A stretch of DNA of 64,000 nt from Escherichia phage ECO4: the sequence record NC_054911.1, one strand, 5' to 3'. Of this stretch, positions 5,674 through 62,642 are shown in pieces. The position numbers and the translations under genes are program-made. The notes below the pieces were generated by a model. It did not search any database. It had not been told where the DNA came from and was given only the letters and a program-made list of their open reading frames with translations. Numbering within the stretch: the stretch's first letter is position 1; each line of letters starts with the position of its first letter.

Positions 5674-5712
5674 TTTCTAATCTCCGTAATTCTGTATCAG
5701 TAGTTGATAGTT

Positions 5713-5744
5713 GTATAGTACCACAGTATGCTTTGGTTGTAAAC
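5713..5744 (-). promoter_or_regulatory. T4-type early promoter upstream of motA
   Basis: Minus strand GTTTACA, 18 nt, TACTAT with TGG prefix (TGGTACTATAC); A/T-rich UP-like tract upstream. Confidence 0.55.
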
Positions 5745-5770
5745 CGTTTTGTGAAAAAATTTTTGAAATA

Positions 5771-5797
5771 AAAAAGGGAGAGCCTCGGCTCTCCCTA
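5771..5797 (-). terminator. Rho-independent terminator (GGGAGAGCC-GAGG-CTCTCCC then T-run on minus strand)
   Basis: Perfect stem followed by TTTTTT on the minus strand, downstream of gene 52 and the small ORF. Confidence 0.6.
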
Positions 5798-5800
5798 AAA

Positions 5801-5950: not shown

Positions 5951-7275
5951 TTGATTTCCTCTAAATCTTTGGTGTATTCTGTAACTACATCAGTAGTTTT
6001 CCAATATTCGTTTTCTTCTTTTTTGGCTTTAGCTTCTTCAGCAAGTTTCTTTGCTTCGTCGGAAGTCATATGAAAAATGTTCATTCCAACTAGTTTATCA
6101 ACATAAGAAGAATACATATCAATTTTAGAAAGTTCTTCGGTCAGTTCTTTGCGAGTTTTACCTTGTACAACAATTTCACCTGAAATTACTTTCTTAATGA
6201 AATGTGCCTTGGCAAAAGCTAAACGAAATGCTGATTCAGTTTCTTTGATTTTGTTATCAATTCGTTTTTGGACATAAGTTTTACGAACTTCAACGAAGTC
6301 TTTGATTAAATCAACTACATTATCGTAAACTTGCAGCTTTCCTTTCTCATTAATGACGGTAATATTCTGGGAACGACGCTCAATCAACCCGAAGTCTTTC
6401 ATAATTTTTGCATGGCGTTCTTCTTCATTATCGCTCAAAGAGTATTCTTTTCGGAATTTAACTTTGAAGCCAAAGCCATGCTCACCACAAGCATCATCCC
6501 ATGTAATGAAGCCTTTATCTTCAAGCGGGTCTAAGATTTTACTCACATAAGTTTCACGATCATACTTATATGGAATCTCAGTGATATGCATTTGAGTTCG
6601 TGAAGTAAACTTATATGTTCCACGAATTTCATATTGCCCATCAATTTCAACGACTTCACCACGAAATTCTGGGAATTCTACCTTCGGTTTAGTTACTTTC
6701 TTTCCTTGAAGAGCTTGCAGTACAGCTTTCTTGACAGAAGAAACACTATGAGGAAGAATGTAAGTTGCATAACCAGTTGCAATACCGGAAACGCCATTAA
6801 GAAGAACAGTAGGAATAATAGGCAAATAGAAAGCAGGCGGAATGTGTTCTTTATCTTGATGTACTGGAGCATATTCAGTATCTTTATATACGTTATAGAA
6901 ATTTTTACTTACACGAGCAAAAATATAACGACTTGCTGCTGCCTTTTGGACAGTACGAGAACCAAAGTTTCCTTGACCGTCTAACAGAGGAAAGTTATTA
7001 TTCCAAGTGTTAGCCATCAAAGCACCTGTGTCTTGCGCAGAGTTTTCACCATGATGATATCCAAGGTCCGCTACACCGCCTGCGATAGAAGCGAGTTTGT
7101 GAAACTTATCTTTATTTCCTCGTGCCAAATCAAGAGCTCGAGCAATAACAAATCGTTGAACTGGCTTAAATCCGTCAATCATATTTGGAATGGCACGATT
7201 TTCAACCGTGTACATAGCATAAGCCAATGCTTCATTATCAATGATACTTTTTAAATCACGATTATTCAGTTGCAT
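5947..7275 (-). CDS. 52: DNA topoisomerase II medium subunit gp52
   Basis: 442 aa, matches T4 gp52 in length and sequence. Confidence 0.95.
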   Translation of the reverse strand: MQLNNRDLKSIIDNEALAYAMYTVENRAIPNMIDGFKPVQRFVIARALDLARGNKDKFHKLASIAGGVADLGYHHGENSAQDTGALMANTWNNNFPLLDGQGNFGSRTVQKAAASRYIFARVSKNFYNVYKDTEYAPVHQDKEHIPPAFYLPIIPTVLLNGVSGIATGYATYILPHSVSSVKKAVLQALQGKKVTKPKVEFPEFRGEVVEIDGQYEIRGTYKFTSRTQMHITEIPYKYDRETYVSKILDPLEDKGFITWDDACGEHGFGFKVKFRKEYSLSDNEEERHAKIMKDFGLIERRSQNITVINEKGKLQVYDNVVDLIKDFVEVRKTYVQKRIDNKIKETESAFRLAFAKAHFIKKVISGEIVVQGKTRKELTEELSKIDMYSSYVDKLVGMNIFHMTSDEAKKLAEEAKAKKEENEYWKTTDVVTEYTKDLEEIK

Positions 7276-8732: not shown

Positions 8733-8832
8733 AGTAAGCGTTTAATACATCAATCATTAAAACGATTAGGAATATACTCAAAACTACTAGTATTATAACT
8801 ACATTCCATATAGCTTTAACAATCTTTTTCAT
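8719..8832 (-). CDS. Small membrane protein (37 aa)
   Basis: SD GGAGGAACAG before ATG 8832; the listed 82-aa ORF would run through the promoter. Confidence 0.4.
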   Translation of the reverse strand: MKKIVKAIWNVVIILVVLSIFLIVLMIDVLNAYFGFM

Positions 8833-8857
8833 TTTCTGTTCCTCCGTAGTTGATAGG

Positions 8858-8890
8858 GTAATAGTACCACAGAGGAACAGTCTTGTAAAC
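8858..8890 (-). promoter_or_regulatory. T4-type early promoter
   Basis: GTTTACA, about 18 nt, TACTAT; near-identical to the 62294-62325 element. Confidence 0.5.
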
Positions 8891-9075
8891 AACTTTTTTA
8901 AAAATATTCGTAATAAATGTGAATACCAACTACTACCGCTGAAACCTGTGCAACCCACCACGCACAAGCAATAAGTACAGAATTCAAAATTTTCATAATA
9001 ACCTCATCACAAAAGTAAATGTTAAACAAATTACTGGAATACTAATTAACCAAACAAAACACCACCATAATGAAC

Positions 9076-9364: not shown

Positions 9365-9396
9365 GTATAGTACCACGGTCCTTGTGGCATGTAAAC
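9365..9396 (-). promoter_or_regulatory. T4-type early promoter
   Basis: GTTTAC ... TGGTACTATAC on minus strand. Confidence 0.5.
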
Positions 9397-13646: not shown

Positions 13647-13676
13647 ATTATACCACATCCTTGTGGTAAAGTAAAC
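13647..13676 (-). promoter_or_regulatory. T4-type early promoter (GTTTAC, 18 nt, TATAAT with TGG prefix)
   Basis: Minus strand GTTTACTTTACCACAAGGATGTGGTATAAT. Confidence 0.6.
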
Positions 13677-16385: not shown

Positions 16386-16799
16386 TTATTCCTTAAAGTG
16401 TGCTTTCAACATCTGATACAAAGACCATGCCTGTTCATTATTTTCAATAGTAACTTTCATGACGGGAAATTCTGTGAAATCTTCTATCTGTTCTTGCTCT
16501 TCCTGCTCTTCAGCAGCCTGATATGGATTTTCCACTTCATTGAAGAACTCGGCTTCGTTGGTAGAAAGCCAGATAAAGTTTTCGTCAATGACTGTACCTT
16601 GTGTTGAATATCCAACTATGCCAGTAGATGTCACAATTTTAGTAGGACGCCCGTAATAGTCAACATCTAAAATTTTAAAAGGTTCCATACCTAAACGCCG
16701 CGCATAGATTCCGTTATCAGTATGGTCTTTAATAAAAGATTCTTGAGCTTGTTTATTTTTAAATTGATACCATTTATTAACTTCAAATTTAATAGCCAT
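16386..16799 (-). CDS. Hypothetical protein (137 aa), goF-position
   Basis: ORF; acidic C-terminus. Confidence 0.6.
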
Positions 16800-17014
16800 T
16801 AATAAATTTCCTTCCAGTAAGTTGTACCGTCTTCAGTGATTTCACGGAATACACCATAAATCGGTTGTTTATCACCGACTTTCTCATACACATAAACCGA
16901 AGTCAAGTGAGTAAACTTAACGGTATGTTCCTTTTGAACCACTACCAAATCTGGATCAAATAATACATCTTCAAATTCGTCATTAGTGCAATTCTGAACA
17001 ATTTTACGTTTCAT
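16799..17014 (-). CDS. Hypothetical protein (71 aa), cef-position
   Basis: ORF; size matches T4 cef from memory, not verified. Confidence 0.55.
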
Positions 17015-17027
17015 TACAATTTCCTCA

Positions 17028-17297
17028 TTAATTAAACAGTGGAGCGATACGTTTCAGAAGAGTAGCAGCACCTTTGGCGAATTTTACATCATGAAAAACA
17101 GTTTCTTCTTCCGTTACAACACGAACTTTAATGTTTTCACAATCCCAATTTTTACGAACAATCTTCAAAAGCTGCAGTAAATCTTTACATTCAGCAATAT
17201 CGATAACACATCCACGAGAATCTTCCATTATAGCACGATAACCGTAAGCCATACCATAATCGTTGAAAGATTGCTCGATGATAATTAAGTTTTCCAT
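17028..17297 (-). CDS. Hypothetical protein (89 aa)
   Basis: SD GGAGAATAAA before ATG 17297. Confidence 0.55.
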   Translation of the reverse strand: MENLIIIEQSFNDYGMAYGYRAIMEDSRGCVIDIAECKDLLQLLKIVRKNWDCENIKVRVVTEEETVFHDVKFAKGAATLLKRIAPLFN

Positions 17298-17321
17298 TTT
17301 ATTCTCCAAGTTGTTTTCTGT

Positions 17322-17364
17322 ATCAGTAGTTGATATTGATATAGTACCATAATCAACTACTGAT
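17322..17364 (-). repeat. Perfect 13-bp inverted repeat (ATCAGTAGTTGAT / ATCAACTACTGAT) flanking a -10-like TGGTACTAT core
   Basis: Seen directly; 17-nt spacer; no GTTTAC -35 in this copy. Confidence 0.7.
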
Positions 17365-17374
17365 GTATATAGTT

Positions 17375-17872
17375 TTATGAAAAAATTTTAAACTTTATGC
17401 ATAGAGAGTGTTTAATCCAACTTTCAGGAATGACTTTGTATGTTCCTAAAAATACCACGTTGTACAACTTAACGCCATCTTCTACCCATTGATCGGTAAT
17501 GTATCCACACATAGCGCGAGTATAAACAGCCTTTCCATCATCTTTGATAAATTTAAATTCGCAAGGAGCAATGAACTTAATAGCTTGACCGAGTTTCCAC
17601 TTAAAGTCTACACCTACATGCGAAGTATCAATCGTTTCAATTCCTTTAGCGGGAACAGCTTTCAAAAACGCAGATTCAAGAAATTTCGCACGAACATAGC
17701 CAAACTGAGGTTTAGACTTTCCATCTTTAGGAATGATACGCACTTTTACTTCAGAATCTTCATCTTTAACACCATGCTTAAGCTGAATGCTTACAATTTC
17801 GACCAATTTTCCTGCTGCTTTAGAACGGGATTTATTAGATACACGAGCAATTTCACCAATATTAATAATCAT
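17375..17872 (-). CDS. Hypothetical protein (165 aa), motB-region paralog A
   Basis: Shares C-terminal motif TDQWVEDGVKLYNVVF with the next ORF. Confidence 0.65.
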   Translation of the reverse strand: MIINIGEIARVSNKSRSKAAGKLVEIVSIQLKHGVKDEDSEVKVRIIPKDGKSKPQFGYVRAKFLESAFLKAVPAKGIETIDTSHVGVDFKWKLGQAIKFIAPCEFKFIKDDGKAVYTRAMCGYITDQWVEDGVKLYNVVFLGTYKVIPESWIKHSLCIKFKIFS

Positions 17873-18490: not shown

Positions 18491-18991
18491 TTATCTCATT
18501 TCAATAAAATCTACGAGTTCAGCATGCGATTTGCGGAACATTACTTGATGCCCACCAATGATAACTTCATCTTCAGGAACTTCGTATACAGCGAGATAAA
18601 ATCCTTTAGAAGATAATTCTTCCCGCTCTTCTCGTGTGAACCATCTCATCATATCATATTCGCTAGCGAAAGCAAAATGATAAAGAGCTATAAACCATCC
18701 TGGAATATGATATTCTACTCCAACATAATCTTTCTTGAACTTAGTATTAATTACTATATTAGCGTTTTTAACTAATAGTTTATCTTCGTGTGGTAAAGGA
18801 ATTCTTTTATTATTATCGCTATGATGCATAAAATTAGGTCTGTCATAACCTACGTGTAATAGCCACTCTTCGCTACATGAATCTATTATACTCCTGTACG
18901 GCGTTATTTGAACACAAAGATTTCGACGTATTGTTATAGCATCTTCATAATCAAGAATACTAAACGATGATTCAACACGATAAATTTTCAT
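18491..18991 (-). CDS. Hypothetical protein (166 aa)
   Basis: ATG 18991 with SD GAGGATAATAAA; the longer listed form would overlap the promoter. Confidence 0.6.
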   Translation of the reverse strand: MKIYRVESSFSILDYEDAITIRRNLCVQITPYRSIIDSCSEEWLLHVGYDRPNFMHHSDNNKRIPLPHEDKLLVKNANIVINTKFKKDYVGVEYHIPGWFIALYHFAFASEYDMMRWFTREEREELSSKGFYLAVYEVPEDEVIIGGHQVMFRKSHAELVDFIEMR

Positions 18992-19014
18992 TTTATTATC
19001 CTCAGTAGCTATGG

Positions 19015-19048
19015 TGTTATAATACCACAACTAACCGAGGAAGTAAAC
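19015..19048 (-). promoter_or_regulatory. T4-type early promoter-like element
   Basis: GTTTAC ... GTGGTATTATAAC on minus strand. Confidence 0.45.
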
Positions 19049-19054
19049 AACTTT

Positions 19055-35831: not shown

Positions 35832-35865
35832 TTCATTCTCCAAATCCGTATCAGTAGTTGATAGT

Positions 35866-59324: not shown

Positions 59325-59354
59325 ATTATACCACATCCTTGTGGCAAAGTAAAC
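59325..59354 (-). promoter_or_regulatory. T4-type early promoter (GTTTAC, 18 nt, TATAAT with TGG prefix)
   Basis: Near-identical to the 13647..13676 element. Confidence 0.6.
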
Positions 59355-61739: not shown

Positions 61740-62267
61740 TTATGCGAGTACCGTCTTTAACCGTTCTTCAAACTTCCGAAGAGTATTTTGGCGTTCAGCT
61801 CTTTGCTTTTTGTAAGTTTCAATACGCTCTGAAATGAGAGTGTATCGTTCATTTACTGATTCTTTCATAAAATCAGGAATTTGACGAGAAGCTTTAATCT
61901 CGTCAAATTTATCAATAACAGCTTGCTCTTCAGCAATTAAGTTATCATACATTAAAATATCTTTCTTGATGAACTCAATATCTTCTTGAGTTACACGAGA
62001 TAATTTAGATGCTTTATCCTTTTTGTACTGTTCGTTAGTATCACGAGACCAGTGTAATGTACGATTTTTATTCGTATTCTTATAAATTTCTACAATACCA
62101 ATCTCATCAATAATAACGATCCAATTCCAACGGGATTTGTAAATTTGTCCTCCATCAACAGTGATTTCACCTCCGATTGAGATGTCATTAAAGAACTTGC
62201 TTTGTGCTTCAGATTTAAATTTACCATCGTTGTAATTTACCAAGTTGAAAATATCTTTAGCGTTCAT
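61740..62267 (-). CDS. Hypothetical protein (175 aa), coiled-coil C-terminus
   Basis: SD GGAGGAACAG before ATG; downstream of an early promoter. Confidence 0.6.
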   Translation of the reverse strand: MNAKDIFNLVNYNDGKFKSEAQSKFFNDISIGGEITVDGGQIYKSRWNWIVIIDEIGIVEIYKNTNKNRTLHWSRDTNEQYKKDKASKLSRVTQEDIEFIKKDILMYDNLIAEEQAVIDKFDEIKASRQIPDFMKESVNERYTLISERIETYKKQRAERQNTLRKFEERLKTVLA

Positions 62268-62293
62268 TTTCTGTTCCTCCGTAGTTGATAGTT

Positions 62294-62325
62294 GTATAGT
62301 ACCACAGAGGAACAGTCTTGTAAAC
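62294..62325 (-). promoter_or_regulatory. T4-type early promoter
   Basis: GTTTACA ... TGGTACTATAC; near-identical to 8858..8890. Confidence 0.55.
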
Positions 62326-62327
62326 CA

Positions 62328-62642
62328 CTAAAAGAAACTTCTTTCACAATTTTTTCCACTGAACCAGGCGCTCACTGCTTTCTTGGTCTCAGGAGCAGTG
62401 TTATCCATAAACCATTCAAAGGCAGCCTTTTTATGATTCTGGAGGGCTTCTCGGGCTTTAATCTGCTCACGGTCTATTAACACTAACATATGAGCCTTTC
62501 TTGTCACCATGGGCTTCTTATGATTTTTTGAATACTCCCAGTCATTTGTCCATCGCATTGTTGTTGCGAACTGAAATACTGCTTCTTTAATTTTAGTTTC
62601 GTAAATTTCACGAGCCTTTGAGTATAACATCACTACCTCCAT
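62328..62642 (-). CDS. Hypothetical protein (104 aa)
   Basis: ORF. Confidence 0.55.
   Translation of the reverse strand: MEVVMLYSKAREIYETKIKEAVFQFATTMRWTNDWEYSKNHKKPMVTRKAHMLVLIDREQIKAREALQNHKKAAFEWFMDNTAPETKKAVSAWFSGKNCERSFF

Follow-up and report, generated by a model that had tools for sequence, protein, structure and literature searches.

The window analysed here, that is, the whole stretch of 64,000 nucleotides from Escherichia phage ECO4 (NC_054911.1), belongs to a T4-like phage (Tequatrovirus) and represents its early region, with genes on the minus strand in the order topoisomerase gene 39, cef, an ORF of 89 amino acids, motB and dexA. Between motB and the 89-aa ORF two complementary arms enclose the -10 element of an early promoter. 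The parts of the site and its neighbours are the following, in the direction of transcription:

17375..17872, minus strand: motB (Pfam PF17613), the upstream gene
17375-17377, minus strand: stop codon of motB, inside an A/T-rich tract
17370..17393, minus strand: A/T-rich, UP-element-like tract, GTTTAAAATTTTTTCATAAAACTA
17364..17369, minus strand: -35-like hexamer TATACA, 17 bp upstream of the -10
17352..17364, minus strand: 5' arm as read on the gene strand, ATCAGTAGTTGAT, at promoter positions of about -30 to -18
17335..17351, minus strand: hairpin interior of 17 nt, made of an inner helix and a triloop
17341..17349, minus strand: extended -10, TGG (17347-17349) plus TACTAT (17341-17346)
17345-17349 with 17337-17341, minus strand: inner helix of 5 bp, UGGUA paired with UAUCA
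17342-17344, minus strand: triloop CUA
17322..17334, minus strand: 3' arm as read on the gene strand, ATCAACTACTGAT, the conserved early leader, predicted +1 to +13
17304-17307, minus strand: Shine-Dalgarno (SD) sequence GGAG of the 89-aa ORF, 14 nt past the stem and outside it
17295-17297, minus strand: ATG of the 89-aa ORF
17028..17297, minus strand: 89-aa ORF downstream of the promoter (PHROG 3720, function unknown)
16799..17014, minus strand: cef (Pfam PF24050), the conserved downstream gene

The transcription start was placed at the seventh nucleotide after the -10 hexamer, a position inferred from spacing.

On the plus strand the arms are found at 17322-17334 (ATCAGTAGTTGAT) and 17352-17364 (ATCAACTACTGAT), 17 nt apart. 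The initial annotation had described them as a perfect 13-bp inverted repeat with a 17-nt spacer, and on rechecking, which could have contradicted that description, they proved exact reverse complements at the same coordinates; the TGGTACTAT core that it placed between them lies on the gene (minus) strand, at 17349-17341. With loops of up to 40 nt allowed, all other perfect inverted repeats of the window are shorter. When the window was shuffled 200 times by dinucleotides, 12 of the shuffles (6%) had perfect repeats of at least 13 bp, and as a window-wide statistic the repeat is thus marginal, barely exceeding chance. Since the shuffle test is only marginal, the case rests on comparative data.

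The 3' arm belongs to a family of early leaders. Its 13-mer, ATCAACTACTGAT, recurs behind the -10 of two canonical early promoters (5696-5708 and 35850-35862), in agreement with the original description of one arm as a conserved early-leader segment. When the three promoters are aligned, an A/T-rich tract (AAAATTTTTTCATAAAAC) is followed at the site by a hexamer in the -35 position, a spacer of 17 bp, TGG plus TACTAT, and the leader; the site's UP-like tract, TGn and -10 align base for base with the canonical early promoters and with T4. In this alignment the 5' arm consists of the last base of the -35 hexamer and 12 of the 17 spacer bases. The site had been thought to lack a -35, the upstream arm having replaced the usual GTTTAC, but TATACA occupies 17364-17369, its distance from the -10 being exactly 17 bp, and the arm sits in the spacer, overlapping only the last -35 base. 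TATACA matches TTGACA at 4/6 positions and the T4-type TTTACA, which is what the canonical promoters read, at 5/6. Compared with the T4/PST consensus, it fits five of the six positions of TTTACW, and TACTAT fits TAYWAT, with the 17-bp spacer and TGn both present. Moreover, in the 22 nt that precede the -35 the A+T content is 91%, the highest among the 14 early promoters listed.

T4 early promoters combine UP, -35, TGn and -10 elements (PMC2988021), and from its sequence the site is predicted to be a complete T4-type early promoter lying inside a stem-loop. The arms are located in the -35/-10 spacer and at the transcript start, and these are the two promoter segments least constrained by RNA polymerase. 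A simple sigma-70 consensus scan leaves the promoter uncalled (8/12 hexamer matches, the threshold being 9), and the T4 GenBank and RefSeq records annotate no promoter between motB and cef; a literature search retrieved neither a mapped transcription start or 3' end for T4 motB/cef nor experiments on the promoter or the hairpin.

RNA folding had been suggested as a check on the repeat, and hairpin formation is supported as its relevant property. In the sense RNA the 13-bp outer stem, which is A/U-rich (4 of the 13 outer pairs are G-C), is extended imperfectly by the inner 5-bp helix to 18 pairs. The hairpin alone reaches -19.4 kcal/mol (13 + 5 bp), the 96-nt region around it folds at -23.6 kcal/mol (z = -5.6), and the pair probability of the stem is 0.98 in contexts of both 411 and 701 nt. 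In the paralogous promoters with the same leader, the corresponding span yields no more than -1.4 and -3.9 kcal/mol. The site differs from them in the spacer and also at positions -6..-1, which read ATCAAT here and ACAACT in the paralogues; it is the latter difference that creates the inner helix. As DNA, both strands fold to about -11 kcal/mol (z about -5.1). A search of Rfam gave no covariance-model match within 17150-17550 at E-values up to 1.

The comparison with T4, which had also been proposed, showed that in that phage, too, motB and cef are separated by this promoter and repeat, identical in sequence, at 6582-6594 and 6612-6624 of NC_000866.4 (complement). In T4 the 89-aa ORF is cut to a remnant, and as a consequence the same promoter is placed directly upstream of cef. 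Of 532 related genomes, 362, that of T4 among them, carry the 67-nt segment that comprises promoter and repeat with 100% identity, and the surrounding 1.2 kb and the flanking genes are mostly 90-95% identical. The Tequatrovirus loci retrieved from IMG/VR are invariant and show no covariation. As for the ORF itself, the full 89-aa version is kept in many Tequatroviruses; the T4 remnant (2484-2653 of locus L002, ATGGAAAA followed by TTCGCTAAAGG...) appears to be due to an internal deletion between short A-rich repeats.

The rare variants of this segment within the genus are informative. ERS-1 differs from the window at only 2 of the 67 positions, and these two are pairing partners, 17361 and 17325, where A-T has become G-C. 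In 4 genomes only the 5' arm has changed, to G, which leaves a G.U pair in the sense RNA, and the double, compensated variant is found in 1, whereas the single variant that would leave A.C in the sense RNA occurs in 0 genomes of the Tequatrovirus set. The sense hairpin is weakened by 0.7 kcal/mol with G.U and by 4.7 kcal/mol with A.C; in the antisense hairpin the order is reversed, with 4.7 kcal/mol lost for G.U. A path from A-U through G.U to G-C is what would be expected for a structure selected in the sense-strand RNA, the within-genus covariation comprising few mutational events, possibly two. The G.U variant is also carried by the stem of phage SA21RB (OL960580.1, locus L062, 722-772), where the same hairpin has been labelled 'rho-independent terminator' through WebGeSTer, a prediction program.

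We extended the comparison to the cef-upstream regions of other Tevenvirinae genera and of related T4-like phages. In other genera it is the promoter upstream of cef that bears the stem-loop: nearly all regions have a T4-type early promoter there, with the extended -10 (TATGATACTATA) in or over the stem-loop. The arms are unlike between genera yet still complementary (5' arm / 3' arm):

RB69 (Mosigvirus): GGTCTATG / TATAGACC
Karamvirus: AGGGCTATG / TATAGCCCT
Gelderlandvirus: AGGGTTATG / TATAACCCT
Marfavirus: GGTAGGAGCATG / TATGTTCCTACC
Winklervirus: TTGGTGTAGGAG / CTCCTACACCAA
Dhakavirus: GGTAGGGTAGTG / TATTACCCTATC

The Dhakavirus orthologues have the same GTATACA -35 as the window. Orthologous hairpins elsewhere have 9-14 bp, their 3' arm ends near +3 and the SD lies outside the stem; the distance from arm to arm varies between genera from 3-4 to 17 nt. 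The T4-group hairpin has a register of its own, centred on the -10 hexamer, with the arms further apart.

Covariation was tested on an ungapped alignment, anchored on the -10, of 16 distinct but phylogenetically related lineages from several other genera. One pairing register stands out: 75% of its cells are paired, and sliding the partners by 1-3 columns lowers this share to 35-46%. Both sides have changed in seven pairs, columns 28/39, for example, showing CG, UA and AU, and the observed covariation score was reached by none of 500 shuffles. Within the stems of these other genera, sense-strand G.U outnumbers A.C by 8 to 1, a count that excludes one G.T pair fixed by the promoter sequence, and the sense fold is more stable than the antisense fold in 15 of the 16 lineages.

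The hairpin can also be kept in shifted registers (loci L028, L017 and L010). The first of these, from a Dhakavirus-like phage (IMG/VR 2974497520), has a 12-bp hairpin over the -10 with the register moved by 5 nt (GGGTAGTAGTGT/ACTATTACCC); its structure is rebuilt, not inherited pair for pair. In Jiaodavirus-like phages the hairpin lies inside the spacer. VR25-like phages (L009, L051-L053) carry a hairpin, TGATAGGGTA-ATTT-TGCCCTATCA, between motB and cef without a recognisable T4-type -35/extended -10, and there the stem-loop appears to have outlived the promoter.

These data are strong comparative evidence that the inverted repeat is the T4-group version of a conserved, predicted RNA hairpin around the motB/cef early promoter. 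The pairing is selected on the sense strand, as G.U is kept and A.C is absent in Tequatrovirus and rare elsewhere, and most likely in read-through RNA coming from motB; in this kind of evidence the sense RNA and the non-template DNA strand, identical in sequence, count alike. The best explanation, to which we assign a probability of about 0.62, is that the motB/cef junction harbours a composite cassette of the PeSL kind, whose hairpin acts on read-through transcripts by attenuation or stabilisation and whose embedded promoter starts transcription anew. Read-through RNA from motB would hold both arms and fold the 13 + 5 bp hairpin (about -19 kcal/mol), whose tip would carry the -10 sequence; RNA started at the promoter, with a 5' end that would coincide with that of the 3' arm, could not form it. 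In the read-through mRNA the hairpin may act as punctuation that slows or attenuates the polymerase; in addition or instead, it may provide the motB message with an exonuclease-resistant 3' end, or serve as the protective 5' end of a processed downstream message. The embedded promoter would meanwhile re-initiate transcription of the downstream genes.

PeSLs combine an early promoter with a stem-loop that mostly lies in the -35/-10 spacer or overlaps the -10 (Arbiol et al. 2010, PMC2839356). The stem-loop has been read by the authors as an attenuator of upstream transcription (PMC2839356; PMC4122927), and one phi1 PeSL stem-loop cut downstream lacZ as much as rrnB T1 did (PMC2839356). In the PeSLs of T4 and PST the stem-loop is found just upstream of the promoter and has short AGNA/TCNT stems (Comeau et al. 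2014, PMC4122927). The motB/cef element resembles PeSLs in several respects. It occupies an intergenic place from stop codon to SD/ATG, limited by the motB stop upstream and by the SD and start codon of the 89-aa ORF downstream; it has an A/T-rich tract and a putative sigma-70-type promoter, with -35 and -10 spaced by 17 bp and the latter in accord with TAYWAT; and promoter and stable stem-loop overlap, as in one of the positions described, 'overlapping the -10 box'. Moreover, it is repeated along the early region, with 14 gene-strand promoters in the window, next to variable ORFs; halves of the cassette have recombined in two phages described below, and the downstream ORF is deleted in T4. 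The differences concern the 13-bp arms, which here lie in the spacer and at +1..+13 and enclose the whole extended -10, whereas the T4/PST stem-loops are just upstream; the -35, which is TATACA and not TTTACW; and the stem, which has no polyG/polyC and is followed by no U-tract. Terminator activity, in addition, is known for one phi1 stem-loop only, while the motB/cef hairpin is known from sequence.

The element belongs to the known PeSL kind, unchanged in T4, and is no new kind of system. The seemingly odd promoter of the best-studied phage group would be an intact early promoter with a built-in RNA structure, and the comparative evidence, which is unusually clean, indicates that the stem-loop half of a PeSL cassette is under selection as a sense-strand structure. 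The function of PeSL stem-loops has so far been tested for one stem-loop of one distant T4 relative; with the motB/cef element, the effect of a stem-loop on polycistronic early mRNA becomes testable in T4 itself, at a well-defined site (NC_000866.4 6582-6624, complement).

Other known systems fit the element in part. Like an intrinsic terminator, it has a stable hairpin, starting 10 nt after the motB stop; unlike one, its stem is A/U-rich and is followed by no U-run (tail ACAGAAAAC), and a terminator scan calls nothing at 17322-17364 on either strand. Given the absence of a U-tract, an efficient intrinsic terminator is improbable, and the hairpin is probably not one. RNase III sites between the early genes of phage T7 consist of a lower stem, an internal loop and an upper stem. 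Like them, the motB/cef element is an intergenic hairpin, about 20 bp in length and interrupted by a symmetric internal loop, within an early transcript that is polycistronic, but the orthologous hairpins of other genera, at 9-14 bp, are too short for RNase III, and a site for this enzyme was rejected on that misfit. The hairpins of T4 genes e, soc, 49 and I-TevI (PMC3014915) likewise contain an internal promoter whose transcripts lack the 5' arm, as is predicted here, the expected +1 being the first base of the 3' arm; those promoters, however, are late ones, and the 3' arm there lies over the SD/start codon, whereas the motB/cef promoter is early, its SD lies 14 nt outside the stem and its 3' arm sequesters neither SD nor start codon.

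The alternative that survives best is one of translational discrimination: the hairpin, with pairing between the upstream U-tract and GGAG, would mask the downstream ribosome-binding site in read-through RNA and leave the promoter-initiated RNA open. We regard it as unlikely for the site as a whole. It draws on the position of the promoter inside the hairpin, as a result of which only long transcripts fold it, on the minimum free energy structure of the 96-nt region, which pairs UUUUUCA with UUGGAGA around the hairpin, and on the T4 precedent of late promoters inside hairpins at e, soc, 49 and I-TevI (PMC3014915). The 3' arm nevertheless ends 14 nt before the SD, and in other genera too, with a 3' arm ending near +3, the SD is outside the stem; the predicted accessibility of the SD is 0.13 in read-through and 0.29 in initiated RNA, and from SD through AUG 0.42 and 0.46. 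The change being so small, masking was largely rejected for the motB/cef site, and it is plausible for sibling promoters. In fact, a spacer strongly complementary to its own leader is found in 4 of the 14 gene-strand early promoters (62301, 8866, 19024 and the motB/cef site; permutation p about 0.013); at the first three, of which 62301 and 8866 are paralogous copies, the 3' arm covers the SD and the spacer arm pairs with it at -19.6 to -20.8 kcal/mol. More generally, SD-to-AUG accessibility is predicted to be clearly lower in read-through RNA, by at least 0.14, at 8 of 13 minus-strand early promoters, a comparison that was made without a control for the effect of RNA length and is only a lead.

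A second alternative places the function in the DNA, either as a palindromic operator centred on the -10 and bound by a dimeric protein, or as a cruciform or non-template hairpin that alters promoter opening. Both the dimeric protein site and the cruciform had been raised in the initial annotation. The centre of symmetry falls on the -10 hexamer, both DNA strands can fold, as given above, and the neighbouring gene motB encodes a DNA-binding protein. An operator, though, should keep its half-site and spacing and show duplex symmetry, a combination that was not found: the arms differ completely in sequence between genera and their spacing ranges over 3-4 to 17 nt, which does not suit contacts with a conserved protein. 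Natural variants keep the pairing on the sense strand only (G.U in 4 genomes and A.C in 0; 8 against 1 elsewhere), whereas a cruciform needs both strands paired and its antisense hairpin would lose 4.7 kcal/mol in the G.U variant; the VR25-like phages, moreover, keep the hairpin without a recognisable promoter. With arms and spacing so variable and pairing maintained on one strand, we hold a DNA-level element to be very unlikely.

It had also been proposed that the promoter is remodelled or silenced, an inverted copy of the leader having destroyed the -35 so that the site no longer fires. The departure of the -35 from GTTTAC and the failure of the consensus scan to call the site would agree with this; on the other hand, the arm lies in the spacer, TATACA matches TTTACA at 5/6 positions with the right spacing, TGn and the UP-like tract are intact, and T4 early promoters combine several recognition elements (PMC2988021). 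The Dhakavirus orthologues share the GTATACA -35, and a 67-nt segment identical in 362/532 genomes, more conserved than the neighbouring genes at 90-95%, is hardly that of a dead promoter, which makes silencing highly improbable. That the repeat is a chance or historical one without selected function, for example a by-product of promoter-cassette recombination, is barely credible: shuffled windows hold perfect repeats of this length at the rate given above and promoter halves do recombine (L056 and L057 join the leader to another spacer and an unrelated ORF), but the compensatory change of ERS-1 with its wobble intermediate, the covariation of the orthologous stem across genera, the additional -6..-1 changes that supply five more pairs and a spacer near-invariant in over 360 genomes all speak against it.

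The siblings of the preferred PeSL-type cassette deserve a description of their own. At about 62260-62330 and 8825-8895 (minus strand) the spacer, CTGTTCCTC, is the exact reverse complement of the SD region of the same promoter, GAGGAACAG, with -20.8 kcal/mol. The predicted SD accessibility at these two promoters is 0.00 in read-through RNA, against 0.26 (62301) and 0.83 (8866) in initiated RNA; according to these folding models, read-through RNA would bury the SD at both. The promoter with its -10 at 19024 (about 18985-19050, minus strand), upstream of ORF 18491-19030, has a spacer, CUUCCUCGGUUAGUUGUG, that pairs with its own leader and SD (..AGCUACUGAGGA) at -19.6 kcal/mol; it ranks best of the 14 for pairing with its own leader and is conserved in T4 and in IMG/VR relatives.

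On a wider scale it is possible, if on balance rather unlikely, that promoter-embedded hairpins are a general, selected device of the Tevenvirinae early region that marks where a transcript started. If this were true, read-through RNA would carry one hairpin for each internal promoter, often over the next ribosome-binding site, and locally initiated RNA would carry none; the phage could then separate the two RNA populations in translation, in processing by RegB/RNase or in decay, and the motB/cef hairpin would be the best-conserved example. In the T4 group the 5' arm has, besides, the character of an 'anti-leader': several other early transcripts have the ATCAACUACUGAU leader in common, and the arm is complementary to their 5' ends; that it might pair with them in trans is only an idea.

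Other hairpins are associated with early promoters of the window. The hairpin CCACAAGGATGTGG lies inside the -35/-10 spacer of two promoters (-10 at 59330 and at 13652, minus strand), and a variant, CCACAAGGACCGTGG, is found at 9372. The identical 14-mer CCACAAGGATGTGG occurs in the cef promoter of Jiaodavirus-like phages (L048-L050), which suggests, at the level of sequence, a spacer-hairpin cassette common to several genera. At 5740-5800 (minus strand) a terminator-like hairpin, GGGAGAGCCGAGGCTCTCCC, followed by a T-run, stands immediately upstream of a canonical early promoter, and this is the layout of the T4/PST PeSLs, with the stem-loop just upstream.

Finally, exchange between cassettes can be followed in Mosigvirus VIPECOMC06 (L056) and in EC.W5-4 (L057), where, at 125-240, the leader and SD of the motB/cef site (ATATCAATATCAACTACTGATACAG..GGAGAATAAAATG) are joined to a canonical GTTTAC half. 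This promoter half has the spacer of the window's 35874 promoter. The ORF that follows is unrelated to the 89-aa ORF of the window, and the VIPECOMC06 ORF was accordingly rejected as its homologue. The junction falls in the shared TATGGTACTAT, which points to recombination between promoter cassettes within the conserved -10, as has been proposed for the shuffling of PeSLs.
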